In this document: positions 3,435-33,672 of the stretch, one piece after another
Layout of the letters: each line of letters starts with the position of its first letter
Position numbering within the stretch: the stretch's first letter is position 1
Source: Myxococcales bacterium
Lineage (GTDB): Bacteria; Myxococcota_A; UBA9042
Reading direction: 5' to 3'
Assembly: GCA_037441385.1 (NCBI GenBank)
Contig: JBBISH010000036.1
Location: 1-49,192 of the forward strand
DNA: 49,192 bases
Made by a program: the position numbers and the translations under genes
Notes under the pieces: generated by a model
Told to the model about the DNA's origin: nothing
Seen by the model: only the letters and a program-made list of their open reading frames with translations
The model's database searches: none

Positions 3435-3565
3435 CCGACTCCAAAACGTCGCCACAAGGACTGGGCCGACGCCCGCAGTGTAGCGATCCCCGCCCGCCAG
3501 TGCGAAAAATCGGACCAAAATGGTCCGTTCGGGCACAGGTCCGAGTATCAAAAACTACATGGAAG

Positions 3566-4324: not shown

Positions 4325-4491
4325 TACTTGCGCATCTCCTCGGCGACCGCTTCTTCGCCGCCCTGCTGCAGCAGTCGGTCGTGGCGCAGCGCTTGCCGCA
4401 ACCAGACGCCCAGCAAGAACACCACGGCGCCCAACATCGCCACGATGGGGATGTTGTCGGGCATGGTCAGGATCGTCCAGAAGGCCTCCAC
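4324..4491 (-). CDS. Small single-TM membrane protein (55 aa), probable bc-complex subunit
   Basis: GTG at 4491 preceded by AAGGAG; MEAFWTILTMPDNIPIVAMLGAVVFLLGVWLRQ...; its stop overlaps the petD start (TAGTG). Confidence 0.7.
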   Translation of the reverse strand: MEAFWTILTMPDNIPIVAMLGAVVFLLGVWLRQALRHDRLLQQGGEEAVAEEMRK

Positions 4492-4495
4492 GCTG

Positions 4496-5275
4496 CTACT
4501 CCTTGGGTGCCGGTGGCCCCGAGATGCCGCCGTCTTTGCGGATCCGCCAGAAGTGCACGGCCATGAGCAGCACCGCCAGCAGCGGCAGCGCCACACAGTG
4601 CAGCACATAGAAGCGCAAGATCGCCGGGTCGCCCACTTGGGGACCGCCCAGCAAAAGTGCCCGCAGGTCCGTCCGTTCCGTCACGCCGGTCAAGCTCGCG
4701 CCCGGGCCCTGGTGGCCCAAGAACGGCGCGGCCGCCGCCATGTTGGTGCCGACCGTGATCGCCCAGCGCGCCAGCTGATCCCACGGCAGCAGGTAGCCGG
4801 TAAACGACAGCAACATCGTCAGCACCAGCAGCGCCACGCCCACCACCCAATTGAACTCGCGCGGCGCCTTGTACGAGCCCGACAGGAACACCCGCAGCAT
4901 GTGCAGCCACACGAGGATGACCATGGCATGGGCGGCCCAGCGGTGCATGTTGCGCTGGATCATGCCAAAGGGAATCTCGTGTTGCAGGTTCTTCATGTCG
5001 ATGTAGGCCCACTGCGCCGTGGGCCGGTAATAGAACATCAGCACCACGCCGGTGACCACGGTGACCAAGAACGTCAAGAAGCTCAGGCCGCCCATGCCCC
5101 AGGTAAAGCGCAAGCGCAGCCCGTGGCGGCGCACCGTAGCGGGGTGCAAGTGCAAGAAAACGCTAGAGGTAATCTGCAGCATGCGGTTGCGCGGCAGATC
5201 CTCAAAGCGGTGGCGAAAGACCGAGCGCCAGATCTGGCGGGCCAGGCCTTCGCGCGGCGGCGGAGTGGCCTTCAA
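4496..5275 (-). CDS. petB: Cytochrome b6-type (N-terminal) subunit
   Basis: Heme-b ligands [15 protein letters not shown] (13 residues apart) and [16 protein letters not shown] (14 apart, b6-type spacing); [19 protein letters not shown]. Confidence 0.93.
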
Positions 5276-5826
5276 GCGCGACCTCCGCCGCGGATAGCTG
5301 CGATCCGACTGGGAAGTTTCACGCTGGCGCCGGGTTGGTCAAAGGCGGTGTGCGCAAACTTTTGCCCCACGTCGATCCACAGCTCGCCCGCGTCGTCCAG
5401 CCAGACCCGCACGCGTTCCAGCGGCCGCGGCGCCGGCCCCTCAAAGTTCACGCCCGCACTGGTAAAACCCGAGCCGTGACACGGGCACTTGAACTTGTCT
5501 TCGCGGCCGTACCAGCGTGGCGTGCAGCCAAGGTGGGTGCAGCGGGCATAGATGGCGTACAGCTCGGCTCCCTGGCGCACCACGTAGACGCGCCAGGTTT
5601 TCAAGAAGCGGTCGCTGACCTGGCCCACTTGGTAGTCGCTGGGCTTGCCGGCGCGAAACATCGTGGGATCTTCCACGGGTGCGCGGCGCACGGCCAGCCG
5701 CGCCACCGACACGACGCCGGCAAAGGTCGACGCGGTCAGGGCGCCCCAGCCCAGGCGCGTGAACAACTCGCGGCGCCCCCACAGGTGCTCCAACTTCGAG
5801 GTCGGGTGAACGGCCGTCTCGCTCAT
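5272..5826 (-). CDS. petC: Rieske [2Fe-2S] subunit
   Basis: ATG at 5826 after GGAGG; Tat-like GRRELF plus TM helix; CTHLGC and CPCHGS boxes; GPAPRPL. Confidence 0.93.
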
Positions 5827-8093
5827 GGCGCCTCCTGCCCCGGGGTGGCCGGGTCGCTGCCGACCGGCAACAGTCCAAGATGCATCAGGTACTCGACCAG
5901 CAGGTCCATTTGCAGCGCAGCCGATCCACCCAGTACGTCTTGCGCCGGGCTCTGCCCGTCCGGGAAGAACTGCGGCATCTTGGTCCCCGGCAGTACTTTG
6001 CCTGGATCCTCCAAGAAAATCCGCACCCACGCGGGGTCCAGGCGCTGGCGGGCCAGTCCCAGATCGGGCGCCAACTGCGCGGTCTCCACGCCGTCGCCCC
6101 GCACCAAGCGGTGGCACGTCACGCACTTCATCCGCTCGAACAGCTGCGCCCCCAGGGCCGCGCGCTGTGGCGACACCGCCCGCACCGGCAAGGGTCGCAA
6201 CCCCGGATTCTTCCCGGCACTTGCCGCCAGCCAACCGGCCAGCAGCTCGGCGTGCGCCGGGGTCAGCCGGAACTGCGGCATGCGCGCCTGCAGCCAAGGC
6301 CGCACCGGCCCCGGCTCAAGCAAATAGCCATACAGCCACTGGGGTTGCAACCGCGCGCCCGCCACATCCAGCGACGGCGGGGCCAAGTGCGCTTGGTCGT
6401 AGTAGCGCAAGATCGCCGCGTCTTGGCCCACCAGGCGGTGACACTGGGCACAACCCCGCTCGCGGACGATGCTTTCGGCCTGCAGACCTGCCCACCCACC
6501 CTGCGGATCGCGTTGGAAATTTGCCGGCGGCCGCTGCTCGCGCAGGCCCCGCAAATACACGGCCAGCGCCTGCACTTGCATGGGCTGCAGCCCATAGTCA
6601 GGCATGACGAGCTGGATGGTCCCGGCCGAAAGGGCCTGGGGCGCGGCGATCTTGGCTTCGGTCGCCCGCTCCCAGGTGCGCTGGGCCTTGGGCGGCGGCG
6701 GCGTGGCAAACAGCAGGTCGCGCGGGTCCTTGGCGCCGTAGTCCGTCAGGTCGGGTCCTGGGCGGGCGTCGTCGGCAAAGCCAGGGATCTCGTGGCAGCC
6801 CGAACAGCCATAGGTCGCAATGAGTTGCCGGCCGCGCTCGACCAGCTTGGGGTCGCGCGGCGCCGCCAGCTCGGCCGGAGTGACCGGCGCAGGCAGCGCC
6901 GACCCGGCAAACAGATAGCTCTGCACGTCCAGCGCCTCGTCCTCGGTTAGCCGCGGCGTGGGCATCCGCGCTTGGGGCCAGTAGGCGGCCGGGTCCAACA
7001 GCCAGGTGGGCACAAAGCCAGGCTGCAGCCGCTGGGCCACGTCGCCCAGTGGTGGACCAAAGTCGATCGTCGCGGGCGCCGCCAAGGCGGCCGGACTCGC
7101 TTCGGCCGGTGCGTCGCTGCCGCCAAAATCGGCCCACGCATCGCCCGATCCCGCGGCCTTGGGTTCGGCGATGTGGACGGCGTCGCGCCCGCTGCCCAGC
7201 GCATGGCAGCCGCGGCAACCCACCGTGTCAAAGACCCCTTTTCCGGCGTCGGCGCGCTCGGCCACCAGCAGGGTCGCCGCCGTGGGCATGGCCAGGGGTT
7301 CGCTCTTCTCTAGCAAATAGGCGGCAATCGCGCGCACTTCGCCGTCGCGCCGCTGCGCCTCGGCCGGGTCGCTGGCCGCCCTGGGCCAAAACTGCGGCAT
7401 TTGATAGTGGGCGCGGCGCCGCGCCGGGTTGGCAACCCACGCAACCATATAACCGGGCAGCAGTTTTTGGGCCACGTGTCGCAGCGAGGGACCGCGCCGC
7501 GCTGGCGTCTCGCCCCCCGTGGCGTGGCAGCCGCTGCAGCCCAAATCGGCAAAAAGTTGCTTACCTTTCGCCAGGATCTCGGCCCCCGGCAGGTGCTCTG
7601 GGCCAGCATGGCAGGCCAGGCAGCTGGCTTGAACGTACGGGCCGGGCAGCAGCGGTTCCAGCCAGTGCGGGTCCCCCGGACCGTGCGCCGTCTCGGCGGT
7701 GAGCGCCAGACCCTGGCCGTGGTGGCAGGGCGTGCAGCCAAACCGCAGCGGCGGATGCGACTTCAGCAGCGTGTCGCGGTGCGGATGCACGCGCAAGACC
7801 TTGGGAATTTGGTCGCCCACCATGCTGGGGTCGTCGATGCCCGCGTGGCAGGTGGGGCAGCGGTCCACCACTTGCAGGTCGGGGACGACCAGTTGCGCGA
7901 CGGCCTCGCCGGAGGCGCGTTGGGGCCGCAACTGGGCGTATTCACATTGCCAACGTTTCCAAGGCCGGCGTGTGTAGCCTTCGTCCAAGAACGCCCAGAC
8001 CACGCTGGCGGCCACGCCGAGGCTCAAAATCATAAAGATGATCTTGTAGTTTCGGTGCTCGTCGGCGACGAAGCGGCCCACGGTCGGTCCCAA
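5823..8093 (-). CDS. Membrane-anchored octaheme cytochrome c
   Basis: N-terminal TM helix; 8 CxxCH motifs (CPTCH, CTPCH, CLACH, CSGCH, CRGCH, CSGCH, CAQCH, CVTCH); the C-terminal five resemble class I domains with GPxL and MP motifs; exact start uncertain. Confidence 0.9.
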   Translation of the reverse strand: MGPTVGRFVADEHRNYKIIFMILSLGVAASVVWAFLDEGYTRRPWKRWQCEYAQLRPQRASGEAVAQLVVPDLQVVDRCPTCHAGIDDPSMVGDQIPKVLRVHPHRDTLLKSHPPLRFGCTPCHHGQGLALTAETAHGPGDPHWLEPLLPGPYVQASCLACHAGPEHLPGAEILAKGKQLFADLGCSGCHATGGETPARRGPSLRHVAQKLLPGYMVAWVANPARRRAHYQMPQFWPRAASDPAEAQRRDGEVRAIAAYLLEKSEPLAMPTAATLLVAERADAGKGVFDTVGCRGCHALGSGRDAVHIAEPKAAGSGDAWADFGGSDAPAEASPAALAAPATIDFGPPLGDVAQRLQPGFVPTWLLDPAAYWPQARMPTPRLTEDEALDVQSYLFAGSALPAPVTPAELAAPRDPKLVERGRQLIATYGCSGCHEIPGFADDARPGPDLTDYGAKDPRDLLFATPPPPKAQRTWERATEAKIAAPQALSAGTIQLVMPDYGLQPMQVQALAVYLRGLREQRPPANFQRDPQGGWAGLQAESIVRERGCAQCHRLVGQDAAILRYYDQAHLAPPSLDVAGARLQPQWLYGYLLEPGPVRPWLQARMPQFRLTPAHAELLAGWLAASAGKNPGLRPLPVRAVSPQRAALGAQLFERMKCVTCHRLVRGDGVETAQLAPDLGLARQRLDPAWVRIFLEDPGKVLPGTKMPQFFPDGQSPAQDVLGGSAALQMDLLVEYLMHLGLLPVGSDPATPGQEAP

Positions 8094-8094
8094 C

Positions 8095-8829
8095 CTACTT
8101 GTACACTTGGGTCAGGTCCTGTGCCGCACCGGGCTGCACGATCACTTTTTGGCTGCCCTTGCCCAGCTTCTCGTGCCAGAACATCAGGTTGTACTGGCCG
8201 GGCGGCACATCGGCCAAGCTGAACTTGCCGTCCTTGTCGGTCACCGCAAAGTACGGGTGGTCAAAGACGGCAATCCAGGCCCCCATCCACACGTGCCCGG
8301 CATCGCAGCCCACCTTCATCAGCCCGGCGCGGCTCACCTTCTTCTTGATGACTTGGCCCTTTTCGGGCAGCGCGTAGTTGAACACATCGCTGTTGGGCAG
8401 CCGAATGTGGGTGTTGTGCAGCACGCCGTCGCTATTCTTGACCGCCAGCTCCGTGCCCACCGAGAAGGCCTGCAAGTGAGGAATAAACCGACACTTGTGA
8501 TTGTCCAGCTCGGCCTTGCCGGGTGCTAGCGGCTTGCCCTTTTCGATCTTGTCGATGAACACGACCACGTTGGCCAGGCCTTGCCCGGCTCCCACTTGCA
8601 GCGACTCGTCGTATTTGGGCTCGGTGCCGCAGACGTCGTTGTCTTTGACGATGTCCAGCTTGACCGGCGCCGGCACGGGCCCGGAAAACTTCACGACACC
8701 GCGGACCGTCGCACCGCCCGCCACCGCCCCCGGGGTGTAGGCCACCGCCGCAGCCGGCAGCAGGGTCAGACCTACCGCCAATGCTGTGATAAGCCTTGCG
8801 ATTTGCGCCAACTTCCTCTGCATACCCAT
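8095..8829 (-). CDS. Periplasmic cupredoxin-like / carboxypeptidase-regulatory-like domain protein
   Basis: ATG at 8829 after GAGG; signal peptide ending AVA; HN...GCDAGHVWM type-1-Cu-like ligand set; C-terminal HPYFAVTDKDGKFSLADVPPGQY..WHEKLG. Confidence 0.75.
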   Translation of the reverse strand: MGMQRKLAQIARLITALAVGLTLLPAAAVAYTPGAVAGGATVRGVVKFSGPVPAPVKLDIVKDNDVCGTEPKYDESLQVGAGQGLANVVVFIDKIEKGKPLAPGKAELDNHKCRFIPHLQAFSVGTELAVKNSDGVLHNTHIRLPNSDVFNYALPEKGQVIKKKVSRAGLMKVGCDAGHVWMGAWIAVFDHPYFAVTDKDGKFSLADVPPGQYNLMFWHEKLGKGSQKVIVQPGAAQDLTQVYK

Positions 8830-8860
8830 CGTTTCGCCCTCGCGGCCCCGCCCAAAGGTT

Positions 8861-8889
8861 AGCGTGCGGGCCACCGGCGGGCCTGTCAA
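8861..8889 (-). promoter_or_regulatory. Possible internal sigma70 promoter for the cupredoxin-cytochrome genes
   Basis: Minus strand TTGACA (8889-8884), 17 nt, CACGCT (8866-8861); overlaps a CTGTCA direct repeat (8883, 8896). Confidence 0.25.
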
Positions 8890-8928
8890 GGCAAGCTGTC
8901 ACGCAATTTCAACGTGTTTTCGGCGTTA

Positions 8929-9420
8929 CTACGAAAGCGTGACACGATCGCGGTCCACCTCGGCGATCGCCGCCAGGGCACGTTCGTGCGCAGCCTGGGG
9001 CGACCAGGTGCGCAGGTCCAGCGGCCGCATGTGCACCGCGCCCTTGATGCAGACCGTGGCACAGTCGCCGCACGAGACGCACTGCAATGGCTCGGCCAGA
9101 ATGACGGCGCCCAGGTAGCGCGTCCCGACCAGCCCGAGGCAGGCAAACGCGCAGAACTCCGTGCAAAGGTTGCAGCCATTGCAGCGCTGCAGGTCAAACA
9201 CGGGCCGCAGTCGCTGGTCGCGCGGCACGCGCTGGGCGAGCTGCCCGCTGGGATCGAACACCGCATCCACTGGGCAGATTTGCCCGCAGACCCCGCAGTC
9301 GATGCAGCGGCGCGGGTCTACCTTGTGCAACTGCCCCTCGGCCCCGGTGATCGCCGCCGTGGGACACTGGCGCAGGCACGAGGTGCAGCCGTCGCACGCG
9401 CCGCCGATCGTATAGGCCAT
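8929..9420 (-). CDS. Polyferredoxin with four [4Fe-4S] motifs
   Basis: ATG at 9420, MAYTIGG; CDGCTSCLRQCP, CIDCGVCGQICP, CNGCNLCTEFCA, CVSCGDCATVCI; no signal peptide. Confidence 0.88.
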   Translation of the reverse strand: MAYTIGGACDGCTSCLRQCPTAAITGAEGQLHKVDPRRCIDCGVCGQICPVDAVFDPSGQLAQRVPRDQRLRPVFDLQRCNGCNLCTEFCAFACLGLVGTRYLGAVILAEPLQCVSCGDCATVCIKGAVHMRPLDLRTWSPQAAHERALAAIAEVDRDRVTLS

Positions 9421-9732
9421 CGGTGCCCTCGCGGCGAACGCCGCCGCCAACTCAGGCTACGCTGGCGAACCGCAGGGCGCAAATGCTGTTCCACGGGCCA
9501 TCCCAGACTTGTTTGATTCGGATTGCAGGCCGGGCATATCTGGTGGCCTAAACCGCGGTCGCTGCCCGATTCTCGCCATTTGCAGAGCCTGCAGACAGGT
9601 GGCGCGGGCGTGAATCAGGTAGGAAGCGTGCAACTTGACTGGCACTAAGCGATATCTGCCTCGGTTGACAGGGCCGTGACAATTGCGCAACCCCATCATC
9701 ACAAATCAAGGGACTACCGCGTGGAGTAGCGG

Positions 9733-9760
9733 TTGACGGCAGGGAGCGTCCTGGTAGATT
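9733..9760 (+). promoter_or_regulatory. Candidate sigma70 promoter for the roadblock/ODP operon
   Basis: TTGACG (9733-9738), 16 nt, TAGATT (9755-9760), with an extended -10 TG at 9752-9753. Confidence 0.4.
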
Positions 9761-9870
9761 CATGATTTGAAGGCCCGCCGTCCTGGCCCCGCCGCTGAGC
9801 CATCTGGCTTGCCTTTCCGCCCCTAGACCGGGTCGTCTGCTGACATTTTTATCGCAGGAGCACCTGCTCG

Positions 9871-10353
9871 ATGTCGACCACCACTTCCACTCGACTAGCT
9901 TTGGGTCCCAGCTTGCGAAGGCTGTCGCCAGAGCAGCGGCGCAACTTCCTGGATCAAATCATGGAACGCTGCGCGGAGCGCTCGGGGACTGGCGCGGCCA
10001 GCTTCGTCCTGCACAGCGATGGCTTGATCGTCGCCGGGCACGCCCCGGGCGACATCGACGCAGAGCTGGCGGCGGCTCACTGTGCGATGGCCTGGGAGCA
10101 ATCGCAGCGGCTGGCCCAAGATGGCTTGTCGGGCAGCATGGAAACGCTGGGGATTACCATGGCTGGCCACCAGATTTGGCTCAGGCAGGTGCGCGGCGAG
10201 TTGCTGTTCGGCTTATGGCTCCCGCCACTGGCCAACTTGGGCGCGGCGTTGCTGGCGGTAGAGCAGGCCGTGGCCGACCTGCAGGTCTGGCTGGGGCCGG
10301 ATGCACAGCGGCGCCGGCGGGCGGCGGCAAAGGTGGGCGCATGGAAACACTGA
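9871..10353 (+). CDS. Roadblock/LC7 (MglB-like) domain protein
   Basis: AGGAG RBS; ASFVLHSDGLIVAG...DAELAAA...ANLGAALLAVEQAVADL matches the roadblock pattern. Confidence 0.75.
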   Translation: MSTTTSTRLALGPSLRRLSPEQRRNFLDQIMERCAERSGTGAASFVLHSDGLIVAGHAPGDIDAELAAAHCAMAWEQSQRLAQDGLSGSMETLGITMAGHQIWLRQVRGELLFGLWLPPLANLGAALLAVEQAVADLQVWLGPDAQRRRRAAAKVGAWKH

Positions 10354-11669
10354 CCGTTGCCGGAATTGCACTGCTGTCGGCTGCCGTGGGTGCCATCCTG
10401 GCGTCGCTATTGGCGAAACGGACCCTACCGCAAGCGGCCCAGGTACAGCCCGAGGCCAAGGCCACAGTCGCCGGCCAAGAGGCACAAGCCGAGTCTGCAC
10501 GCCAGGTTGTTGCGGTCGGCGCTGTCACGGCGGCGGTCGAGCCGGCGGCCGACTACACGACCGTGGAGTCCACCGAGGGCAAGTGGCAAGACCAGGCCTT
10601 GGCCGACCAACTGCACACCGCCCAGCGCGGGGCCGCGGCGGCCGAGGCGGAGCGCGACGATTTGCTGGGTGAACGAGCCGATCTGCAAAAGCAACTTGCC
10701 GCAGGCCAGGCTGCGTTGCGGGCCGCTCGCGAACAAGTTGGGCAACTGGAACGGAGCGTGGCTGACGCCAACAAGGAGCGCGAGGCCGCGGCAGGCCGTC
10801 TGCAAGCCTGCGAGACTCAACGCGATCAGCACGCAAGCCGGGCGGCGGCGGCCGAAAAGGCTGTGGCCGATCAAGCCGGCCAGCACGCCCGCAGTCAGGC
10901 CGAAATCCAGCGACTGCGCGAGGCGCTGGACGAGGAACGGCAGGCCCGCACGGCGAGCGAGGCGGAATTGGCGGCACAGTCCGAGCTGGAATCCTCGCTA
11001 AACGACTTGCGTTCCTCGCTGAGCGACCACGAGCGTTGGCTGGGCGACGAGCGGCAGCGGGCCACGGCCCTGCAAGACGAACTGGCGGGCCTGCAGCAGC
11101 ATCGGGCCAAGGTGCGGCAGTTGGCCTCGCAACTGCGCGAAGCCAAGGCCAAGCTGGCCAACCAATCGGGTGCGTTCGACCTGTCTGCGATCCTGCTGAC
11201 CGCAGAATCGCAGGTGTGCGTGGCCGATTTGGAAGGATTACTTGGGGATTGGGCCGAGTCGCCGGGCGTGCGCGCCATCGCGGTGGGCACCAAGGATGGC
11301 ATGGCGCTGGCCGGCAACACTGCGGGCACGCCGTGGCTGGCCGCCCTTGCCGCCGAAGTGGACCGCGCGGTGGCCGCTGCCGAGCCGTGGGTCGCCGCGC
11401 ACCTAGAGCTTGGCGAGCCGGAACTCATGCAAGTGCGCGACCGCCATGGCGGAGCCCTGACCGTGCGTCGCTGGGAAGGCCTGAGCGAGCCGCTCTTGCT
11501 GGCCGTGCTCAGCTCGGCGCAAATTGCCAAGGATCCAAGCAAGGTTGCCCCCCCTGTCACCGTTGCCGCCGAGCGCCCGCGTGGGGCGTCCGCCGTTCGC
11601 CTACCCCGACTTGAGCCCGCGCCAACGGCTGCGGCCTCCACCGACCCTGGACCGATTACTGACCAATAG
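10341..11669 (+). CDS. N-terminal TM anchor, long coiled coil and C-terminal roadblock-like domain
   Basis: ATG at 10341, METLTVAGIALLSAAVGAILASLLAKR; ~190 aa A/E/Q/R heptad region; C-terminal PGVRAIAVGTKDGMALAG...LAALAA...LGEPELMQV. Confidence 0.7.
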   Translation: METLTVAGIALLSAAVGAILASLLAKRTLPQAAQVQPEAKATVAGQEAQAESARQVVAVGAVTAAVEPAADYTTVESTEGKWQDQALADQLHTAQRGAAAAEAERDDLLGERADLQKQLAAGQAALRAAREQVGQLERSVADANKEREAAAGRLQACETQRDQHASRAAAAEKAVADQAGQHARSQAEIQRLREALDEERQARTASEAELAAQSELESSLNDLRSSLSDHERWLGDERQRATALQDELAGLQQHRAKVRQLASQLREAKAKLANQSGAFDLSAILLTAESQVCVADLEGLLGDWAESPGVRAIAVGTKDGMALAGNTAGTPWLAALAAEVDRAVAAAEPWVAAHLELGEPELMQVRDRHGGALTVRRWEGLSEPLLLAVLSSAQIAKDPSKVAPPVTVAAERPRGASAVRLPRLEPAPTAAASTDPGPITDQ

Positions 11670-11697
11670 CTGGCCGCCGCGCCGATCGAGAGGAAAC

Positions 11698-12459
11698 ATG
11701 CCTAGTGTAACGCTGTTCCAGTCGCCCAATCACAAGAACATCCTGCTCGAAGACTTTGGCCGCGGCTTGGCCGTGCAGGCCAATCAGCACCTCATCATCC
11801 ACGAGAACAGCGCCATCTTGCTCGATCCGGGTGGGCACAAGGTGTACTCCAAGGTCCTGGGCGAGACCTTTGCCCAGCTTGGCCGCGCCAAGTTGGAGCA
11901 CCTGTTCTTCTCGCACCAGGATCCCGACATCGTCGCCGCCGCCAACGGGTGGCTGATGACCACCGACGCCACCGGCTGGGCCCCGTCGCTGTGGATTCGC
12001 TTCATCCCGCACTTTGGCCTGGACAACCTCGTCGCCGACCGGCTCAAGCCGATCCCGGACACCGGCATGTTCCTGAACCTGGCCGGTTGCGAATTGATGT
12101 TCATTCCCGCGCACTTCTTGCACTCGCCCGGCAACCTGCAGGTCTACGATCCCGCGTCGAAGATCCTGTACAGCGGCGACCTGGGCGCGTCGCTGGGCAT
12201 GGAATACCAAGAAGTGCCCGATTTCGACGGGCACCTCAAGTACATGGAGGGCTTCCACAAGCGCTACATGACCTCGAACCGCGCCATGCACGCCTGGGCC
12301 GGCATGGTCCGCGACCTGGACATCGAGATGATCGCGCCGCAGCACGGTGCGCTGTTCCGTGGCCGGGCCATGGTGCAGCGGTTCATCGATTGGTGCGACG
12401 AACTGACCTGCGGCGTGGACCTGTTGCCCGACACCTACACGCTGCCGCGCAAAGGCTAG
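11698..12459 (+). CDS. ODP-like oxygen-binding di-iron protein (MBL fold), copy 1
   Basis: ATG at 11698 after GAGG; NQHLI, LLDPGG, SHQDPD, PAHFLHSPGN, SGDLG, FHKRYM, IAPQHG; no flavodoxin domain. Confidence 0.85.
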   Translation: MPSVTLFQSPNHKNILLEDFGRGLAVQANQHLIIHENSAILLDPGGHKVYSKVLGETFAQLGRAKLEHLFFSHQDPDIVAAANGWLMTTDATGWAPSLWIRFIPHFGLDNLVADRLKPIPDTGMFLNLAGCELMFIPAHFLHSPGNLQVYDPASKILYSGDLGASLGMEYQEVPDFDGHLKYMEGFHKRYMTSNRAMHAWAGMVRDLDIEMIAPQHGALFRGRAMVQRFIDWCDELTCGVDLLPDTYTLPRKG

Positions 12460-12498
12460 CCAGCGCGCGCTGGCGCAACGACCACTGGAGAATCCCCG

Positions 12499-14652
12499 TT
12501 GACGATGCCCCCCGCCACACCGGACCCGCAGACGCTCGTCGGCACGCGCTTTGGCCGCTACGAGGTCGAGGCACGCATTGCTGCGGGCGGCATGGCCGAG
12601 GTGTGGCGGGCGCGGTTGACGGGCAGCGCCGGCTTTGAGAAGCGGGTGGCCCTCAAGACCTTGCTCCCAGATCTGGGCCAACGCGACGACTTGGTGCGGA
12701 TGTTCATCGGTGAGGCTGCCTTGGCCGCCGAGATCACCCACCCCAACGTGGTCCAAGTCTTTGATTTTGGCTGCAAGGACGGTCGCTACTTCATGGCGAT
12801 GGAGTACGTGGCCGGGCGTTCGCTGCGCCAGCTCCTGCAAGCGAGCCAGCAGGCCGGGGCGCGCCGGCTGCCGGCGTGGGTCCTGCTCGAGATGGGCCTG
12901 CAAGTCTGCGACGGTCTTGAGCATATCCATGCCTTCCACCACGCCGATGGCGAGCCGATGGGCTTGGTGCACCGCGACGTTTCGCCCGAGAACATCCTGA
13001 TTTCGTGGTCCGGCACGGTCAAGCTCATCGATTTTGGCGTCGCCCGGGTGATCGAGGCGGCCGGCATGGCCAGTGGCCCGGTGGCAGGCAAGCCGCGCTA
13101 CATGGCGCCCGAGCAGGCGCTGGGTTTGGACATCGACGCCCGCGCCGACGTGTTTTCGCTGGGCGTGGTGATGTACGCGTGTGCGACCGGGCGCCTCCCC
13201 TTCTCGGGCAAGGACGCGCAAGAGGTGATGCAGGCAGTGGTTCAGGGCCGTTGTCCGCCGCTGGCCAAGCTCAACCCGCAGGCACGGCCCGAACTGGTGG
13301 CCCTAATCCAGCACGCCATGGCCACCGATCGCGGCGAGCGCACGCCGAATACTGGGGAACTGCGGCGCGAACTGTTGGCCTGGGCGCGGGCGGCGGACCT
13401 GGACCCTATGACGCGGCGCCTGGGCCCCCTGGTCACCGCGTTGGCCAAGGGCGACCCGGACCTACCACCGGCCCTGCGCTCCCACGCCAAAGGCGTGCAG
13501 CTTGCCAGCCTGCTCTTTGATGCCTCGAACGAGGTCCCGGCGGGGACCGCGGCCTCGCTGGCCAACGAGGCGCCGCCCATTCCGGCGCAGAGCACCTCGA
13601 CGGCCCGCAAGCTGCACCCAGCGCCCGTGGGCCGCGCCCGCCGCGCTCCCTCGGGGGCGATCGCCGCGGAAGACGCGCTGCCGCAGCTGCCGTCCGAGCT
13701 GATTGCGCCGCTCCCCACGCCAGAAAGCAAAGCCGCCCAAGCTCCTGCGGCGCCCCAGCCCCAGGCCCCAGCCACTCCAGGGCGGCGGGTCCAGCGCGAC
13801 ACGCACACGGGTTGGGGGCTGCCTGTGCTCCCGCAGGAGCTGACCGGCCCGCTGACCAACCCGCCCCTGCCCCAGAGCACGCCAGCGCCGACGACGCGCG
13901 ACACGGGCAAGCACCGTGCCACCACCGGCCCGGTTCCCCAGATTGCGGCAGCGGAGTCGTACCCCGAACTAGACGCTTGGATCCGCCCCACCGCGCCGTT
14001 GGGTTCGGCAACTCGCGCGAGCCAGTCGTCGGGCTCTCATCCGATGAGCTCGGATCGAAGGTCCGGCGAAATGCCCACGGTGGATCTGGGGCCCCTTTCC
14101 GATGCGCGACGCACGCGCGATGAACCGGCCCGGCCCTACACCCGCGAATCCGGCAAGATGCACAGTAACGACAGCGTGGCCACCGCGACCGAATCGGCGG
14201 CAGGGGCTGCAACAGCCTCGGAGTCGGCGCGCCAGGCGGAGCGCCGCTCGGCAACGGGCAAGTGGGCCGCGATCCTGAGCGAGCGCGCCGAGGCCGCCGC
14301 AGAGCCCGAACCGCGTGCCAGCACGGGCAAGTGGGCGGCCGTGGGCAGCGAAAAGACCCCGGCCCCGGCTCCCAGCCCGTCCGGTTGGGCGGCGTTTGGC
14401 CAGCGCGAGAGTCGGCCCTTGTGGGGCGTGCCGGCCGAGGAACCGCCGCCGGCCGAAGCGCCGGCCAAGGAACCCGAAATTCCGGCCGAGGCCGAACAGC
14501 TGTTCGAGACCGGGCTTGCGGCGTTCCAGCGCCACCGCTGGCAGCAGGCGGTCGACTGCTGGGAGCGGGCCTGCGCGATGGCGCCGGGCAACCGGGGATG
14601 GGCATTCAACTTGGCTCGGGCCAAGCAGAAACTGGAAGGTGAGCCGGGCTAG
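12499..14652 (+). CDS. Cytoplasmic Hanks-type Ser/Thr protein kinase with a long P/A/T/S-rich tail and C-terminal TPR-like helices
   Basis: [33 protein letters not shown]; no TM segment; C-terminal [34 protein letters not shown]. Confidence 0.92.
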
Positions 14653-14726
14653 CGTCCGCGCGGGTGCGCTGACCGGGGCCGACAATCGGAGTGCGAAGTC
14701 TGGCAAAAGCCGTGGGGAGAATTCAG

Positions 14727-15104
14727 ATGGCGCGGCGCAAGCGCGAGCCCAAGCTGGGTAAAGTACTGAACGATCTGCATCAAGCATTCCCCGCGCTCAC
14801 GGCAGCGTGGCTGCTGGATACCGACGGCTTCCATGTCGCTGGCGATCGGCTAGGTGGGCGCGACGCCGACACGGTGTGCGCCTTGTGCGCGAGTGCCCTC
14901 GCCACCGTCGAGCGCATGGGCCGCGAAATTGCGCAGGGCGAACCGACCACGATGGTCGTGGGCTTGCAGCAGGGGGCCCTGGTGCTCCACAACGTCGATG
15001 CCGAAACTTGGCTCGCGGTCGAAGTCGGCCAGCGCGAGCAGTTGGGGATGGCGCAACTGGCGGTCCGGCACGCGCGGCCACTGCTGGCAACCACGGGTAG
15101 CTAA
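14727..15104 (+). CDS. Roadblock/LC7 (MglB-like) domain protein
   Basis: ATG at 14727 after GGAGA; AAWLLDTDGFHVAG...VCALCASALATVERMGREIAQGEP...QLGMAQLAVR. Confidence 0.8.
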   Translation: MARRKREPKLGKVLNDLHQAFPALTAAWLLDTDGFHVAGDRLGGRDADTVCALCASALATVERMGREIAQGEPTTMVVGLQQGALVLHNVDAETWLAVEVGQREQLGMAQLAVRHARPLLATTGS

Positions 15105-15188
15105 CCAATCGATCCGCCTGGGGCAGGCCCAGGGATCCAAGCAACGGGGCGGTCCTCGCCCAACGACTCAACCAAGCAGGAGAACATC

Positions 15189-15554
15189 ATGTCGCGACTT
15201 CAAGATCTTACCAAAGTGCTGCGCGGTCTGCAGACGGCCACCCCCGAGCTCGAGGCCGCGGCGCTGATTTCCGAAGACGGTCTGCTGATTGCCAGCGCAC
15301 TGCCCGAAGAGATCGAAGAAGGCCGCGTCGCCGGTATGTCGGCGGTGCTGCTGAGCCTGGGTACGCGCGCGTCAGCCGAGTTGGGTCGCGGCAACCCCGA
15401 GTTGGTGCTCATCAAGGGCAGCCGCGGCTACGTGGTCATGGTCGAAGTGTCGGGCGGCGCTTTGCTCATCGTGCTGGCGACCGAGACGGCCAAGCTGGGT
15501 CTGGTGTTCTTGGAGGTCAAGCGCGCCGCGCAAGCCCTTGCCAAGATGATCTAG
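15189..15554 (+). CDS. Roadblock/LC7 (MglB-like) domain protein
   Basis: AGGAG RBS; EAAALISEDGLLIASALP...RVAGMSAVLLSLGTRASAELGRG..VLIKGSRGYVVM...AKLGLVFLEVKRAA (canonical). Confidence 0.9.
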   Translation: MSRLQDLTKVLRGLQTATPELEAAALISEDGLLIASALPEEIEEGRVAGMSAVLLSLGTRASAELGRGNPELVLIKGSRGYVVMVEVSGGALLIVLATETAKLGLVFLEVKRAAQALAKMI

Positions 15555-15653
15555 TGGCACGCGCCAAGGCTGCCGTCCTGTGCGGCACACGGTTGCGCGT
15601 TCCGTCGTCTGTTGCCTACCTGGGCTGCCCGCGCGGCCCTTCTGGAGGTGGCC

Positions 15654-16412
15654 ATGCCATCGCTCGTCCTGTTCGGGGATCATCAACATCGCAACATCCT
15701 GCTGGAAGATTTTGGCCGGGGCCAGGCCGTGCAGGCCAACCAGCATTTGATCATTCACGACGGCGCGGGCCTGTTGCTCGATCCGGGCGGCCACAAGGTC
15801 TACGGTCAGGCCTTGTCCGAGACGCTGCAACACCTGGGGCGCGGCAAGCTGGAGCACCTGTTCTTCTCGCACCAAGACCCCGACATCGTGGCCGCCGCCA
15901 ATGGCTGGCTGATGACGACCGAGGCCACGGGCTGGGTGCCCTCGCTGTGGCTGCGCTTCATCCCGCACTTTGGCTTGGACAATCTGGTGGCCGACCGACT
16001 CAAACCGATTGGCGACGGCGGCATGATCCTGGATCTCAACGGCTGCAAGATGACGATTCTGCCGGCCCACTACCTGCACTCGCCCGGCAACTGCCAGGTC
16101 TACGATCCGCACTCGAAGATCCTCTACAGCGGCGATTTGGGCGCGTCATTGGGCATGACCTACCAAGAGGTCGAGGATTTTGACGCCCACCTGCAGTACA
16201 TGACTGGCTTCCACCAGCGTTACATGACGTCGAACAAGGCGATGCGCGCCTGGGCCAAGCTAGCCCGTCAGCTGGACATCGAGGTCATTGCCCCGCAGCA
16301 TGGCGCCTTCTTCCGCGGCAAGCCGATGGTCGAGCGGTTCATCAGCTGGTGCGAAGGTCTGCAGTGCGGCGTGGACCTGATCCCAGAGAGCGGCTGGACC
16401 CTGCCGACGTAG
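15654..16412 (+). CDS. ODP-like oxygen-binding di-iron protein (MBL fold), copy 2
   Basis: ATG at 15654 after GGAGG; same motifs as copy 1 (SHQDPD, PAHYLHSPGN, SGDLG, IAPQHG). Confidence 0.85.
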   Translation: MPSLVLFGDHQHRNILLEDFGRGQAVQANQHLIIHDGAGLLLDPGGHKVYGQALSETLQHLGRGKLEHLFFSHQDPDIVAAANGWLMTTEATGWVPSLWLRFIPHFGLDNLVADRLKPIGDGGMILDLNGCKMTILPAHYLHSPGNCQVYDPHSKILYSGDLGASLGMTYQEVEDFDAHLQYMTGFHQRYMTSNKAMRAWAKLARQLDIEVIAPQHGAFFRGKPMVERFISWCEGLQCGVDLIPESGWTLPT

Positions 16413-16457
16413 GCGCCGCCGCAATCCGGGCCCGACCGCAGCTGCCTTGGTGCGGGA

Positions 16458-18116
16458 TCAATTGCCCAGCTGAACCTTGGGTGCGGCGGCAAACAGCACC
16501 AGCAAGTCGTTGTCGGTAAAGCTCAGGCCGGCGCCGTAGAACAGGCTCATGCGCGACGTGGGGTACATGAGCTCGTCCGCGCCGAGCCAAGCGTAGACGT
16601 GCGGGATGAAGGCCCACATCAGGCTGGCGCGCAGCCGCGGCCGGTCCTCGCTGAAGCGGAACAAATCCGCCGAGATGGCTAGTCGGTCGCGTAGCAGGTT
16701 GAAGTCGACGCCAGCGCCCGCCGTGCTCTCGATCAGGCCGCCGCGCAGCGTGACCGAGCCGAACCGGCGCGCATATTGCAGACCCAGGCGCAGACCGCTC
16801 GGCTGGCGCTCGGTAAAAGTCTCGCTGAGTTGCGGGGGATCACTGCCGCCCGAGCTGGCCGTCACCCGCGAAAACGTCGACACCACAGGCAGGTTGTTGG
16901 TCGTTACGGTGGCCAGCACGTACTTGTCCGGCGTGGGCTGCAACCGCAAGCTGAGGTGCGACTGCCACTTGAGCGGGTCCTTGGCATCGTACAGCGCGGC
17001 GTGCGCCGCCAGCCGATAATCCACGCCAATTTCCAGGTCGATGTACTTCTTGAGCAGCGTGCTGGACGAGGCCATGATGCCCTCGGCCGACTTGATGAGC
17101 GTCTCGTCGCGCAACAGCCGACCCACGTTGCCTTTGCCGGCGTCGATGTCGGCGGCCACGCTTTCGGCGTGCTCCATGACGCGGTCGACCCTGCCCAATG
17201 CGTCTTGAACCTTCTTGAGCGCGGTCGCGACGGTGCCGATGGTGCTGTCGACGCCAGCGCGGTTCTTGCCAATTAAATCCCGCACTTCACCCGTCACGAC
17301 CTCGATGTTCTCGATGCTGCGCACCAGCGACTTGCCGCCCACGTCGATGGTGCCCGAGGTGCGGCCGATCAGTTGATCGACGCGATCGGCCAAGTCGCTC
17401 AGCTTGGTGGCGGTGTCGGCAAAGCCGCGCATGCCGCGATCCAGGTCGCCGCCGGGAGCCAATACCCCCTCGCTCAGGCGTTGTTGCAGCGTGGCGGTGC
17501 TGCTGGCGAGCGACGCGCTGGCCCGCACCAGGTTGTCGGTGATGGTGGCGATCTTTTCCGCCCCCGAGTCGCTGCCCAAGACCGCCGCGGCGTTGTGCGT
17601 CACCTTGGCCACGTCGGCCGTGATCTCGTTGATTTTTGGGATGATGTCGGCCGCCTTCTCCATCTTGCTCAGCGTTTGCTGCAGCGCGGTTGCGGTGATC
17701 ACTCGGGGGATTTCGTCGCCGGGCCGAAGCTGCCGGCCACTCGCGCCCACGCCCAGCTCCAGGTAGAAATCGCCCAACAGCGAGGCCTGCAGGCGGGTCA
17801 GCGACGCCGAGTTGCGCAGCTCGCCCTCGGCATTGCGCACACCGCCAAAGAGCTTGACGCTCTCGACCAGCCGCACCTGCACGTCCACGGCCTGGCCCTT
17901 GAGCTGCATCGTCTCGACTTCGCCCACGCGCACGCCGGCCACCGTGATCTTGGTGCCTTCGCCGATCCCCGTCACATCGTCAAAGGTGGCGTGCAGCAGA
18001 TACGTGCCCGAACCCTTGCCGATCCCGCGGTTGCTGTAGGCGACAAAGACCACCAGGGCCACCATCGCGGCGACGACCAGCAGACCAACCGTGATGGCCG
18101 CGCGGACGTTGTTCAT
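16458..18116 (-). CDS. mlaD: MlaD/MCE family protein with long helical region and C-terminal beta-barrel-like domain
   Basis: N-terminal TM; FDDVTGIGEGTKITVAGVRVGEV...SLLGDFYLEL (MCE domain); GKGNVGRLLRDE. Confidence 0.85.
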   Translation of the reverse strand: MNNVRAAITVGLLVVAAMVALVVFVAYSNRGIGKGSGTYLLHATFDDVTGIGEGTKITVAGVRVGEVETMQLKGQAVDVQVRLVESVKLFGGVRNAEGELRNSASLTRLQASLLGDFYLELGVGASGRQLRPGDEIPRVITATALQQTLSKMEKAADIIPKINEITADVAKVTHNAAAVLGSDSGAEKIATITDNLVRASASLASSTATLQQRLSEGVLAPGGDLDRGMRGFADTATKLSDLADRVDQLIGRTSGTIDVGGKSLVRSIENIEVVTGEVRDLIGKNRAGVDSTIGTVATALKKVQDALGRVDRVMEHAESVAADIDAGKGNVGRLLRDETLIKSAEGIMASSSTLLKKYIDLEIGVDYRLAAHAALYDAKDPLKWQSHLSLRLQPTPDKYVLATVTTNNLPVVSTFSRVTASSGGSDPPQLSETFTERQPSGLRLGLQYARRFGSVTLRGGLIESTAGAGVDFNLLRDRLAISADLFRFSEDRPRLRASLMWAFIPHVYAWLGADELMYPTSRMSLFYGAGLSFTDNDLLVLFAAAPKVQLGN

Positions 18117-19012: not shown

Positions 19013-19117
19013 GAATTCCGATCGATTTCGCGGGCAAGCAGGGCCGCGCCGCCTTGACAGCAACCGCTTGCTCCAAGCAGCATCCATGCGGGCAGCGCGT
19101 GCTGCCCCGTCTTGCCC

Positions 19118-20953
19118 ATGCCCAGCTCACCCTTCATGAAATTGCGCGCCATCGCCGGGGACCTTCAGGGTCAGCGGTATTCTATACGCAACGACGTGGT
19201 GTTGGGGCGGGCGACGGCTTGCACCATTTTCGTGCCCGACCGCCGCGTGTCGCGCGAGCACGCCCGCGTCTACATGCTGGGCGACCAGTTGATGGTCGAC
19301 GACCTGGGTAGCCACAACGGGACCTTCGTCAACGAGCAGAAAGTACAGCAGACGCGGCTGCTGCCGGGCGATCGCCTGCGCGTAGGTTCCACGGTGTTCT
19401 TGGTCGAAGGCCCGGGGAACAGCGAAAACTCGGCGGTGGTGCGCGTGGTCAGCGACGTCCACCCCGTCGAGCCGCGCATGGTGCGGCAGTTCGAGGCCAG
19501 CTCGGGTCCGCTGAACATGGCCGGCCTGGCGGCCGAGAGCCTGTACACGGCGCTAGGTGTGGGCAACACCGCCGACATACCCGATATCCTGCGCAAGACC
19601 AAGCACTTTGCCGTCTTGGTCGAGGCCAGTCGCTCGCTGCAAAACTACAGCGACTTGAATGCGACGCTGCCTGGCTTGCTCGACTTGGTCATGCAGGTCT
19701 TGGCGGCCGACCGGATGTCGCTGGTGTTGTTGGATGACCAGCAGGTCCTCATCCCCAAAGTGGTTCGCGAAAAGCCAGGCAAGCGACCGGCGTCGGCGCC
19801 GGCGGTGCAGGACGAGGTGGCGCTGGACGAGGTGGCGCTGGACGAGGTGGTGCTGAGCAAGACCGTGGCCGACATGGTCCTGAAGCAGCGCTGCGCGGTG
19901 ATCACGGCCGACGCCTCGGCGGATTCGCGGTTCGTGGGCTCCGAGTCGGTCATGATCAGCCACGTCCGATCGCTGGCCGTGGTGCCCGTGCTGGTCGGCA
20001 ATCGGCTGCTGGGCCTGATCGATGCGGAAAATCGTCAGAGTGTCAACGCGTTCGACGAGTCGGACCTGCACCTGTTGTCTGTGTTGGGCTCGATGATCGG
20101 CGTGGCTCTGGATCACTTTGCCGTGTCGACGGCGCGCGAGCAGGCCATCGCTGAACTGCGGGCGGCGCAAGCTCAATTGCTTGCCACCCAAGAGCGGCTC
20201 GTCGCGGCCGAGCGCATGGGCGTGCTGGGTCGGCTGGCCAGCGGCATTGCCCACGAGGTCAAGAACCACTTGGGCCCGTTCATGCTGGCCGACATGATTG
20301 CCAGCAAGTACCCGAATGACGAGGCAATTCAGGATGCCGCTCAGTTGATGCTAGAGGCGCAGCAGCGCATCTTCGACTTGGTCGACGAACTGCGCGAGTT
20401 TGCCGGGGGTGTCCGCAGCCACGCCGTCATCCAACCCAGCAACCTGGTGGCCGTGGTCCGCGGCGTGGTGCGTTTCGTCAGCTGCGACCGCAGCGTCAAT
20501 GCGCACGAGATCCAAGTGCGGGTGCTGGCCGAGCCGGTCGTGCCCATGGACACGGGCCGAATTCGTCAAGTTCTCATCAACTTGATTCGCAACGCGGCCG
20601 AGGCATCGCAGGCCAACAGCGCCCCCATCGTCATCACGATCGAGGGCGACGACGAAGTGGCGGTGGTCAGCGTCCAAGACAGCGGCACGGGCATCCCGTC
20701 CGAGGTGCAAGAGCGTATCTTTGAACCGTTCTTTACCACCAAGGGCGATCGCGGCCTGGGCCTGGGTCTAGACCTGTCGCGGCAAATCGTCCGCGCCCAC
20801 GGCGGATCCCTCACGTTTGCCACGCAAGCCGGCGTGGGCACGACCTTTGCCATGGCACTGCCGCTCGCGCCGCAAGTCCAGAAAGACGGCAGCGACTTCA
20901 ACGACCACATGACCGACACCACCAATCGCTCGATCCCCGGCAATCTGCCGTAG
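19118..20953 (+). CDS. Cytoplasmic FHA-GAF-histidine kinase
   Basis: FHA motifs LGR, VSREHA, SHNGTFVN; GAF (RSLAVVPV..GLIDAEN..FDESDLHLL); H-box GIAHEVKN; N/G boxes NLIRNA, DSGTGI, FEPFFTTK, GLGLGL. Confidence 0.92.
   Translation: MPSSPFMKLRAIAGDLQGQRYSIRNDVVLGRATACTIFVPDRRVSREHARVYMLGDQLMVDDLGSHNGTFVNEQKVQQTRLLPGDRLRVGSTVFLVEGPGNSENSAVVRVVSDVHPVEPRMVRQFEASSGPLNMAGLAAESLYTALGVGNTADIPDILRKTKHFAVLVEASRSLQNYSDLNATLPGLLDLVMQVLAADRMSLVLLDDQQVLIPKVVREKPGKRPASAPAVQDEVALDEVALDEVVLSKTVADMVLKQRCAVITADASADSRFVGSESVMISHVRSLAVVPVLVGNRLLGLIDAENRQSVNAFDESDLHLLSVLGSMIGVALDHFAVSTAREQAIAELRAAQAQLLATQERLVAAERMGVLGRLASGIAHEVKNHLGPFMLADMIASKYPNDEAIQDAAQLMLEAQQRIFDLVDELREFAGGVRSHAVIQPSNLVAVVRGVVRFVSCDRSVNAHEIQVRVLAEPVVPMDTGRIRQVLINLIRNAAEASQANSAPIVITIEGDDEVAVVSVQDSGTGIPSEVQERIFEPFFTTKGDRGLGLGLDLSRQIVRAHGGSLTFATQAGVGTTFAMALPLAPQVQKDGSDFNDHMTDTTNRSIPGNLP
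19811..19855 (+). repeat. 15-bp in-frame tandem repeat x3 (DEVAL DEVAL DEVVL)
   Basis: gacgaggtggcgctg twice, then gacgaggtggtgctg. Confidence 0.9.
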
Positions 20954-32100: not shown

Positions 32101-32105
32101 TGCCT

Positions 32106-32150
32106 GGGTATCCTTCGCCCGGGTAGCCTGTGCCCAGGTAACCTGTGCCC
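32106..32150. repeat. Degenerate 15-bp tandem repeat x3 directly upstream of the response regulator
   Basis: gggtatccttcgccc / gggtagcctgtgccc / aggtaacctgtgccc. Confidence 0.75.
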
Positions 32151-33662: not shown

Positions 33663-33672
33663 CGTGAGCCCG

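Follow-up and report, generated by a model that had tools for sequence, protein, structure and literature searches.

The locus described here raises the question of what an oxygen-binding di-iron protein (ODP) does in a gene cluster with roadblock proteins and a Ser/Thr kinase. The window, that is, the whole stretch of DNA analysed, is an entire contig of 49,192 nucleotides (JBBISH010000036.1, contig C36 of assembly GCA_037441385.1) of a Myxococcales bacterium with a 6.6-Mb genome in 221 contigs, which is 91% complete. Seven plus-strand genes at positions 9871–16412 encode, in this order, the roadblock protein R1, the membrane-anchored coiled-coil protein TMccR2, ODP1, a Hanks-type Ser/Thr kinase, the roadblock proteins R3 and R4, and ODP2. 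Few non-haem oxygen/iron sensors are known in bacteria, and ODP is one of them. It forms peroxo species, and the characterised ODPs act with chemoreceptors and CheA. To our knowledge, ODP has been tied experimentally to chemotaxis only so far. A sequence-only reading of the cluster proposed a new module, in which the state of ODP is relayed through roadblock adaptors to Ser/Thr phosphorylation with neither a GTPase nor a chemoreceptor.

The comparison of related loci indicates that the core of the cluster is a two-gene pair of R4 and ODP, which is not a stand-alone invention of this locus, and that the Ser/Thr kinase output is rare and lineage-specific. The R4-ODP cassette is widespread and seemingly undescribed. 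In full-text searches, a scope that excludes supplements and the neighbourhood tables of Muok et al. 2019, no paper tying ODP to roadblock proteins or Ser/Thr kinases was found among those listed. For the cluster itself, we lean towards a membrane-tethered roadblock scaffold that works independently of a GTPase and makes Ser/Thr phosphorylation depend on the sensing of O2/Fe(II) by ODP. The two ODPs would hold a di-iron centre and thereby signal the presence of O2 and/or Fe(II). Each ODP would work with roadblock-fold adaptors, R4 being the dedicated ODP partner, and R1, R3 and TMccR2 would be lineage-specific extra roadblock subunits forming a scaffold at the inner membrane. The soluble kinase would be the output, held on the scaffold by its C-terminal TPR-like motif of about 50 residues, and the di-iron state of ODP would alter the kinase activity or the access to substrates. 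No small GTPase would take part. Physical contacts, the direction from ODP to the kinase, and the substrates are all presumed parts of this scheme.

The R4-ODP gene pair and its neighbours

ODP1 and ODP2 are 75% identical to each other. They match PF19583 over the profile positions 1–194 of 194 with 227 bits and 221 bits, respectively (cut-off 27.2). Both proteins are aligned over the full length with the solved ODPs of Thermotoga maritima (6qrq/6qwo, E 9e-66) and Treponema denticola (6qnm/6r9n, E 6e-59), which belong to the same family, at roughly 50% identity. The HQDPD stretch and the downstream His/Asp stretches of these ODPs are kept here. The stretches SHQDPD (within FFSHQDPD), PAHxLHSPGN, SGD and APQHG are present in both proteins, aligned to the solved ODPs, and they are invariant columns of a 60-sequence alignment, in which the mean column identity is 69%. 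We take these to be the metal-ligand stretches. Ligand sensing by ODP1 and ODP2 would be expected from this likeness. According to a passage of a published study (PMC7319448), several signal transduction pathways have taken up ODPs to sense O2 and iron.

The search with ODP1, using one genome per species, resulted in 78 loci with 56–95% identity. Genes in these foreign loci were called by a simple heuristic of GC3 and length, and Pfam was run on representative loci. Many of the loci are cut by contig ends, and thus the neighbour counts are lower bounds; relatives among them are not independent samples. Both tblastn and all-against-all clustering of open reading frames (ORFs) place an R4-type roadblock gene immediately before ODP and in the same orientation, with a median distance of 58 bp, in 65 of the 78 loci. 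R4 of the window, which ends 99 bp before ODP2, has the same arrangement. The carriers of the pair are labelled as Myxococcota, Acidobacteriota, Gamma- and Alphaproteobacteria (among them Nitrosomonas and Competibacter), Chloroflexota, Thermodesulfobacteriota, Calditrichota and Sulfurihydrogenibium (Aquificales-type). The mean column identity of the R4 family is 66% (40 sequences from several phyla), and R4-type roadblocks are far more conserved than MglB-type roadblocks. Judging from the adjacency and the conservation, R4 may be an obligate ODP adaptor. The claim of a new module is narrowed by these results: the kinase variant was found only in a few myxobacterial lineages, whereas the core pair occurs in many phyla.

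The neighbours of the pair are signalling proteins of changing kind, which is the pattern expected of a sensor cassette that can be reused. The loci L008, L012, L018 and L020 of Myxococcales and Acidobacteriota have the order of a histidine kinase, R4, ODP, a REC-DUF4388 (PATAN) protein, a ParA/MinD-like ATPase and a protein of about 190 residues. In Thermodesulfobacteriota (L046, L058, L074), R4 and ODP are followed by a PAS histidine kinase, a REC-PATAN protein, a ParA-like ATPase, a second roadblock-like protein and a REC-TPR protein, and L074 has an HD-GYP protein between ODP and the PAS histidine kinase. Cultured bacteria are among the carriers: L020 belongs to Minicystis rosea DSM 24000 and L074 to Geomonas sp. 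Red32. The Anaerolineae loci (L031, L039) encode a REC-histidine kinase, a small Arf/Ras/Gtr1-like GTPase, a roadblock, a PATAN-roadblock fusion, protoglobin, ODP and a REC protein. Gammaproteobacteria (L016, L036) have a fusion of an AAA_22/AAA_16 ATPase with a roadblock, then ODP and an OmpA-family protein, and the Acidobacteria locus L005 has R4, two successive ODPs and a PAS-GGDEF-EAL protein. The cluster and its relatives suggest that a large ODP clade always travels with a dedicated roadblock adaptor, and that this pair can be wired to very different outputs.

R4-type domains are also present within longer proteins. At E ≤1e-8, 110 such proteins were detected, most of which are fusions with an AAA_22/AAA_16 ATPase; in Anaerolineae, an R4-like domain is fused to PATAN. 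A PF00111 2Fe-2S ferredoxin domain is added in three fusions, while REC is present in three and HAMP in one (P0017, P0024, P0053 and P0099 are the ferredoxin and HAMP cases). In the protein P0106 (613 residues), encoded on one metagenome contig of 2.3 kb, a Pro-rich linker connects a Pkinase domain with a C-terminal roadblock of the R4 type, which is 51% identical to R4. Its kinase domain is 27% identical to that of the window. In P0106, the roadblock takes the place held by the C-terminal motif in the window kinase. As a separate observation, protoglobin lies between the roadblocks and ODP in 13 Chloroflexota loci (for example, positions 7420–7989 of L039), so that each of these operons has two different O2-binding proteins and a small GTPase.

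Table 1. Features of the seven-gene cluster in the window, with the supporting match or property
Feature	Positions	Strand	Length	Evidence or remark
Promoter-like site	9733–9760	+		TTGACG, spacer of 16 nt, TAGATT; about 110 bp upstream of R1
R1, roadblock/LC7 protein	9871–10353	+	160 aa	Robl_LC7, E 6.5e-7
TMccR2, membrane anchor, long coiled coil and probable divergent C-terminal roadblock (about residues 300–400)	10341–11669	+		
ODP1, oxygen-binding di-iron protein homologue	11698–12459	+	253 aa	PF19583, E 2.4e-67
Soluble Hanks-type Ser/Thr kinase	12499–14652	+	717 aa	Pkinase, E 1.6e-36, 126.5 bits
C-terminal TPR-like motif of the kinase	14464–14649	+	last 62 aa (core about 50 aa)	kinase-only HMM, hhalign
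R3, roadblock/LC7 protein	14691–15104 (start perhaps 14727)	+	137 aa	Robl_LC7, E 1.3e-9
R4, conserved ODP-partner roadblock	15189–15554	+	121 aa	Robl_LC7, E 3.3e-13
ODP2, oxygen-binding di-iron protein homologue	15654–16412	+	252 aa	PF19583, E 1.6e-65

The kinase variant and its C-terminal motif

The kinase consists of a kinase domain (residues about 20–290), a long Pro/Ala-rich linker and a conserved C-terminal motif. Among six kinase orthologues, K53, D160, N165, D178 and E205 are invariant, and the catalytic Lys, HRD, DFG and APE elements are kept. According to these elements, the protein is predicted to be a catalytically complete Hanks kinase. No hydrophobic window above 1.6 on the Kyte–Doolittle scale was observed, and thus the kinase has no membrane segment.

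The kinase adjoins ODP in L001, L002 and L003, and the order of kinase, roadblock and ODP is kept in four related genomes. The records of the relatives are labelled as Myxococcota, Myxococcales or 'Deltaproteobacteria' metagenome-assembled genomes. L001 has all seven genes with 72–98% identity, including R1 (81%) and R3 (89%). In L002 and L003, five genes are present, namely the kinase, an R1/R3-type roadblock following it, which is of the same type as R3, the TM-coiled-coil protein, R4 and ODP; TMccR2 orthologues are thus found in all three loci. In a genome of another myxobacterial family (G191), the order is ODP, R4, ODP, a protein of 250 residues, and a kinase which is 30% identical to that of the window and ends in the motif. 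Absence of the kinase from homologous operons had been named as a finding that would speak against the module. The result is divided: the kinase is retained in the relatives described here, and it is missing from most of the 78 loci.

In a genome scan anchored on the kinase, which resulted in 80 loci, ODP was found only in L079 and L081, which are the contigs of L001 and L002, and a roadblock was found in L083. No ODP or roadblock was found in the rest of the 80 loci, among them L080, which has a 72%-identical paralogue, and L082, which is a short contig. In L083 (positions about 4899–9089), a 43%-identical kinase that ends in the motif is followed by an R4-type roadblock, an OmpA-family protein, a 362-residue protein and a V4R-domain protein, and the 13 kb of this locus contain no ODP. 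Another locus (L270 in the genome G110, contig C545, minus strand, positions about 4580–11290) has a PATAN protein, a motif-bearing kinase, a 168-residue protein, homologues of the small and large subunits of NiFe-hydrogenase and, farther on, an R4-type roadblock. No ODP is present on this 11.8-kb contig, and the locus may be an H2-sensing analogue of the cassette. In L274 (G214, contig C58, positions 3535–8573), R4 and ODP are followed by an HTH_17/MerR-like protein and a 980-residue multi-TPR protein, which has the motif as its last ~55 residues. This multi-TPR protein would be another kind of output or scaffold.

The six kinases have variable low-complexity linkers, followed by a conserved end of ~50 residues. 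The C-terminus of the window kinase matches TPR_2 with E 1.3e-4, below the cut-off of this model. ODP-linked proteins were the training set of a combined motif profile; the less circular tests are those with a hidden Markov model (HMM) built from the kinases alone and with hhalign. The kinase-only HMM (four tails) was searched against 6,393 ORFs of the ODP loci, and the extreme C-termini of seven REC-TPR proteins were detected with E values from 4e-9 to 4e-5, all of which belong to Thermodesulfobacteriota operons. Weaker matches were the C-termini of REC-PATAN proteins located after ODP in Myxococcota and Acidobacteriota. According to hhalign, the kinase motif matches the REC-TPR motif with a probability of 97.8% (E 9e-13) and the REC-PATAN type A motif with 96.7% (E 4e-10), and the latter two match each other with 97.1%. 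The control, the C-terminus of type-B REC-PATAN proteins, gave 0.1%. These type-B proteins of Thermodesulfobacteriota were thus rejected as motif carriers, and a separate REC-TPR protein carries the motif there. In the alignment of 26 tails, the pattern is F..L.E.G, an aromatic residue, A, W/F-E.A, P, D/N and then N-L..h. Two results are new in this analysis, namely the kinase output itself and the motif that the kinase has in common with the REC outputs.

The combined profile was searched against 59,269 ORFs of the own genome and the 80 kinase loci. Five ORFs exceeded 60 bits, and all of them are kinases: that of the window, two orthologues of it, and those encoded in L083 and L082. Three are in ODP or R4 loci, that of L083 is followed by the R4-type roadblock, and that of L082 is on a short contig. 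The tail of the window kinase scores 81.7 bits. The next ORF of the own genome, a multi-TPR protein, reaches 38.3 bits in total, no other single domain in this genome exceeds 21.6 bits, and generic TPR proteins have at most 25 domain bits. In the 6.6-Mb genome, the motif occurs on the window kinase alone. Among the ODP loci, the combined profile detects the motif in 24 of 78. Each of these belongs to the 65 loci that have R4, and the 13 loci that lack R4 have no motif either (Fisher's p 0.007, uncorrected for relatedness).

In the search of 301 Myxococcota genomes, 29 matches of at least 50 bits stand above a tail of weak TPR matches. Within a flank of 1.5 kb, the 29 best motif loci besides the own locus include 12 with ODP, 4 more with R4 and 5 on or beside kinases; the remaining ones are 5 REC-PATAN proteins with no ODP or R4 in view and 3 with nothing recognised. 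By the definition used here, an output either has the motif at its C-terminus or forms a fusion with a roadblock, and the window kinase belongs to the former type; Chloroflexota and Gammaproteobacteria use roadblock fusions in place of the motif. The motif may be regarded as a candidate docking element. The kept gene order, the G191 locus, the shared motif and the P0106 fusion give comparative support to a putative functional link of ODP, roadblock and kinase.

The same components can be read with the signal in the opposite direction, with the kinase as the input which phosphorylates the roadblock scaffold or ODP, for example as an on/off switch or for relocation to or from the membrane. The kinase has no sensor domain of its own but only a long disordered linker and a docking-type motif, and in other lineages the motif sits on REC proteins, which are phospho-acceptors. 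However, the protein with the motif comes last among the signalling elements of the operon in other lineages, and ODP is the only obvious sensor. Moreover, the sensors that accompany kinases with a fused or linked R4 differ (ODP, the NiFe-hydrogenase-like genes and the V4R protein), which fits one output with interchangeable inputs. We consider the reversed direction unlikely, and the kinase is treated below as the output of the scaffold.

The proposed scaffold and its missing partners

According to Pfam, the seven proteins contain two ODP, three Robl_LC7 and one Pkinase domains, as the sequence-only reading had assigned them apart from one roadblock; an NCBIfam search gave nothing specific beyond Pfam. 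Four roadblock domains had been claimed. R1, R3 and R4 are above the Pfam cut-off, whereas the fourth, at the C-terminus of TMccR2, is probable only (Robl_LC7 E 0.046, below the cut-off). The R1/R3 group is related to the R4 family with an hhalign probability of 99.2%. TMccR2 begins with a single strongly hydrophobic segment (residues 6–24, Kyte–Doolittle 2.36), and its middle part is rich in Ala, Glu, Gln, Leu and Arg, coiled-coil-like, with weak SMC/Filament-type matches. Its C-terminal domain matches the R4 family by hhalign with a probability of 58% (E 1e-4), and roadblock ORFs elsewhere among the loci are weak matches of an HMM made from it. The AlphaFold2 model of the domain, which is of low confidence (pLDDT 56), has the order alpha-beta-beta-alpha-beta-beta-beta. 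The PDB matches listed by Foldseek for this model are all roadblock, LC7, LAMTOR or MglB chains, and they are weak (best E 7e-4, TM about 0.45–0.5). These features suggest that the domain is probably a fourth, divergent roadblock.

No GTPase, chemoreceptor (MCP) or CheA was found by Pfam in the locus and its flanks, so that the reported lack of these partners in the operon holds. In the own genome, the Robl_LC7 model matches R1, R3 and R4 alone, and the ODP model matches ODP1 and ODP2 alone. PATAN (DUF4388) is present in two large frames elsewhere, and the single MCP is encoded on another contig. An MCP domain is located within 8 kb in only one of the 78 related loci, and thus this ODP clade is not the chemoreceptor-linked one. 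The only Ras-family match in the own genome, a 973-residue frame on contig C19, was rejected as an MglA candidate; it is the translation factor IF-2, located between nusA and truB. The Arf model gave two weak matches (E 0.002–0.006) in frames of 551 and 973 residues, the latter being IF-2 again. The tblastn search of the own genome with the small GTPases of the Chloroflexota ODP operons gave no match. Thus no stand-alone MglA-like small GTPase was found in this 91%-complete genome by the Ras and Arf Pfam models or by tblastn. Scoring of the co-occurrence of MglA and MCPs across Myxococcota genomes had been proposed as a test. The related loci bear out the separation from MCP, whereas for the GTPase this holds in the own genome but not in Chloroflexota, where an MglA-like GTPase cluster occurs in 12 of the 78 loci (protoglobin is present in 13).

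Several results weigh against the scaffold reading. The contact of ODP, roadblock and kinase is a proposal from sequence comparison. Since 75 of the 78 related ODP loci have no kinase, the kinase is not a general part of the system. In a metagenome scan with the six-orthologue alignment, at least 79 loci were obtained, all with kinases of at most 47% identity, and none of the matches listed has ODP or a roadblock. L043 shares both flanks with the window and has one ODP but no roadblock or kinase, so that an ODP of this clade can stand alone. The motif is TPR-like, and 181 of the 301 Myxococcota genomes match it at E 1e-5, mostly with the 33–45 bits of the generic TPR tail. Within the own genus, it is strong in the own genome and G189, weak in G159 and absent from three genomes, that is, from three of the five other sampled genomes. 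The fourth roadblock domain has weak scores. Finally, the Chloroflexota cassettes include a small GTPase, and the missing 9% of the genome could encode a GTPase.

The last two points also favour a different reading, in which the roadblocks serve an MglA-type GTPase encoded elsewhere or in the unassembled 9%, and ODP and the kinase modulate a GTPase polarity or motility switch. In excerpts of a survey of MglB homologues (PMC4316618), 421 of 749 are coupled to MglA, the criterion being a cognate MglA-like GTPase within a few genes. The other 328 are orphans, none of them characterised at the time of the survey according to the same excerpts, so that orphans are common. The genome has no stand-alone Ras, Arf or MglA-like gene by the searches described above. 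Most ODP-R4 loci outside Chloroflexota have no GTPase seen within 8 kb; there, no second conserved GTPase cluster was found within this distance, and no GTPase was found among the neighbours in 15 representative loci. We regard a hidden MglA partner as quite improbable.

The proposed GTPase-independent scaffold differs from the known systems as follows. The T. denticola-type ODP system pairs ODP with a chemoreceptor and che genes, whereas none of these was found within the cluster or next to it; here, ODP would have a roadblock as its partner and a Hanks kinase as its output. The MglA/MglB switch of Myxococcus and Thermus shares Robl_LC7 with R1, R3 and R4, but the cognate small GTPase of that system was not found here. 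PATAN neighbours are common to relatives of this cassette and to some MglA/MglB systems (excerpts of PMC4316618). The actinobacterial conservons (CvnA-D) consist of a membrane histidine kinase, a roadblock, a DUF742-type protein and a GTPase, and the window shares only the roadblock with them; no HisKA/HATPase, DUF742 or GTPase match was found in the seven proteins by Pfam and NCBIfam.

The eukaryotic MP1-p14 complex scaffolds MEK/ERK, and Ragulator recruits mTORC1. The cluster resembles Ragulator/MP1-p14 (LAMTOR) by analogy, since several roadblock subunits, a membrane tether and a Ser/Thr kinase pathway held in place would be common to both, and the chains that Foldseek matches to the model of the TMccR2 C-terminus include those of LAMTOR and MP1-p14. 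Heterodimers may form among R1, R3, R4 and TMccR2. The cluster has no sequence relation to Ragulator beyond the fold. Ragulator acts through Rag GTPases, none of which were found here, and the sensor of the cluster is a di-iron protein. A wider generalization is doubtful and is given as a tentative idea. R4 and the TPR-like motif would be a general GTPase-independent plug and socket, in which ODP, protoglobin, the NiFe-hydrogenase-like pair, the V4R protein and the fused 2Fe-2S ferredoxin are interchangeable sensors, and the Hanks kinase, REC-PATAN, REC-TPR, AAA ATPase and c-di-GMP enzymes are the outputs. The cluster would then be a bacterial counterpart of MP1-p14/Ragulator, and kinase scaffolding an old role of the roadblock fold.

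If the scaffold reading is true, a bacterial Ser/Thr kinase with no sensor gains a defined input, the lack of which has long been a gap for hundreds of myxobacterial kinases. Orphan MglB-like roadblocks would gain a function without a GTPase, and a short docking motif would be available for testing. Direct tests of the claims are feasible, since the proteins are soluble and of small size and ODP can be brought into the relevant states in vitro.

Some genes of the window are candidates on the substrate side. An FHA-GAF-HATPase_c protein with no HisKA match (19112–20953, plus strand) is followed by an NAD-kinase-like gene. As a dedicated reader of phospho-Thr it was rejected, because its neighbourhood is shared with the kinase-less L043 and the gene is not beside the module in L002 and L003. 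It is local context and a candidate substrate of the kinase. Two PP2C-type phosphatases are encoded at 42222–43451 and 44445–45257 on the plus strand, about 26–29 kb from the kinase, the first being fused to a cyclic-nucleotide-binding domain. Targets shared with the PP2C phosphatases are candidate substrates; neither the PP2C genes nor the FHA gene is tied to the module by conservation.

The cluster and its surroundings in the contig

The seven genes are closely spaced with successive gaps of −13, 28, 39, 38, 84 and 99 bp and are flanked by opposite-strand genes, in agreement with the description that the sequence-only reading gave of seven co-oriented, closely spaced genes. The 13-nt overlap between the stop of R1 and the start of TMccR2 suggests coupled translation. 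The promoter-like site (Table 1) is the sole sigma-70-like match in 9300–16700 on both strands, where shuffled sequences average 0.5 matches, and it is a consensus match only. No plus-strand terminator-like site was found within the cluster. The domains, the tight spacing and the single promoter-like site would fit one operon.

The quick maximum-likelihood tree of ODPs, with SH-aLRT support only, places the ODPs of the kinase-bearing loci in one clade of eight rows (97). ODP2 groups with the R4-linked ODP of L002 (81), and ODP1 groups with the lone ODP of L043 (98). According to this grouping and the lone ODP at the same site in L043, the arrangement in the window looks like a duplicated and rearranged five-gene unit.

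On the upstream side, the cluster is divergent from a minus-strand gene set (4496–9450) which encodes a 4Fe-4S ferredoxin (8929–9450), a CarboxypepD_reg-domain protein, a multihaem cytochrome c of 756 residues, a Rieske protein and a cytochrome b. The set looks like an unusual bc-type respiratory complex. It is also located beside the ODP1-type gene in L001 and L043, and as speculation it may be a physiological target of the cluster. Although this divergent neighbour, the lone ODP of L043 and the metallo-beta-lactamase/flavodiiron-like fold, whose members are mostly enzymes, would suit ODPs that act as small di-iron enzymes or as iron/oxygen buffers (for example, protecting the respiratory complex) with the kinase nearby through shared regulation, such a role is very improbable, because the neighbours of ODP across phyla are signalling proteins and not redox enzymes, ODP1 and ODP2 have no flavodoxin or rubredoxin domain by Pfam, and the PDB entries of the closest relatives of known structure describe these as oxygen-binding sensors.

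On the downstream side, MlaD (16458–18116) and then an ABC ATPase are encoded on the other strand. Farther along, a row of DUF4350, a MoxR-type AAA_3 ATPase and DUF58 lies on the plus strand (26097–30511), with a CarboxypepD_reg/Big_1 protein before the row. Both ends of the contig cut large repeat proteins, at 3–3551 on the minus strand and 46794–49190 on the plus strand; one of them has EGF/Filamin-like matches, and the other has seven Dicty_CTDC repeats. Haem-synthesis genes, namely a class-III aminotransferase (hemL-like), hemD and hemC, are located at 33673–36831 on the minus strand, and an OmpR-type response regulator and a histidine kinase adjoin them (31339–33881).

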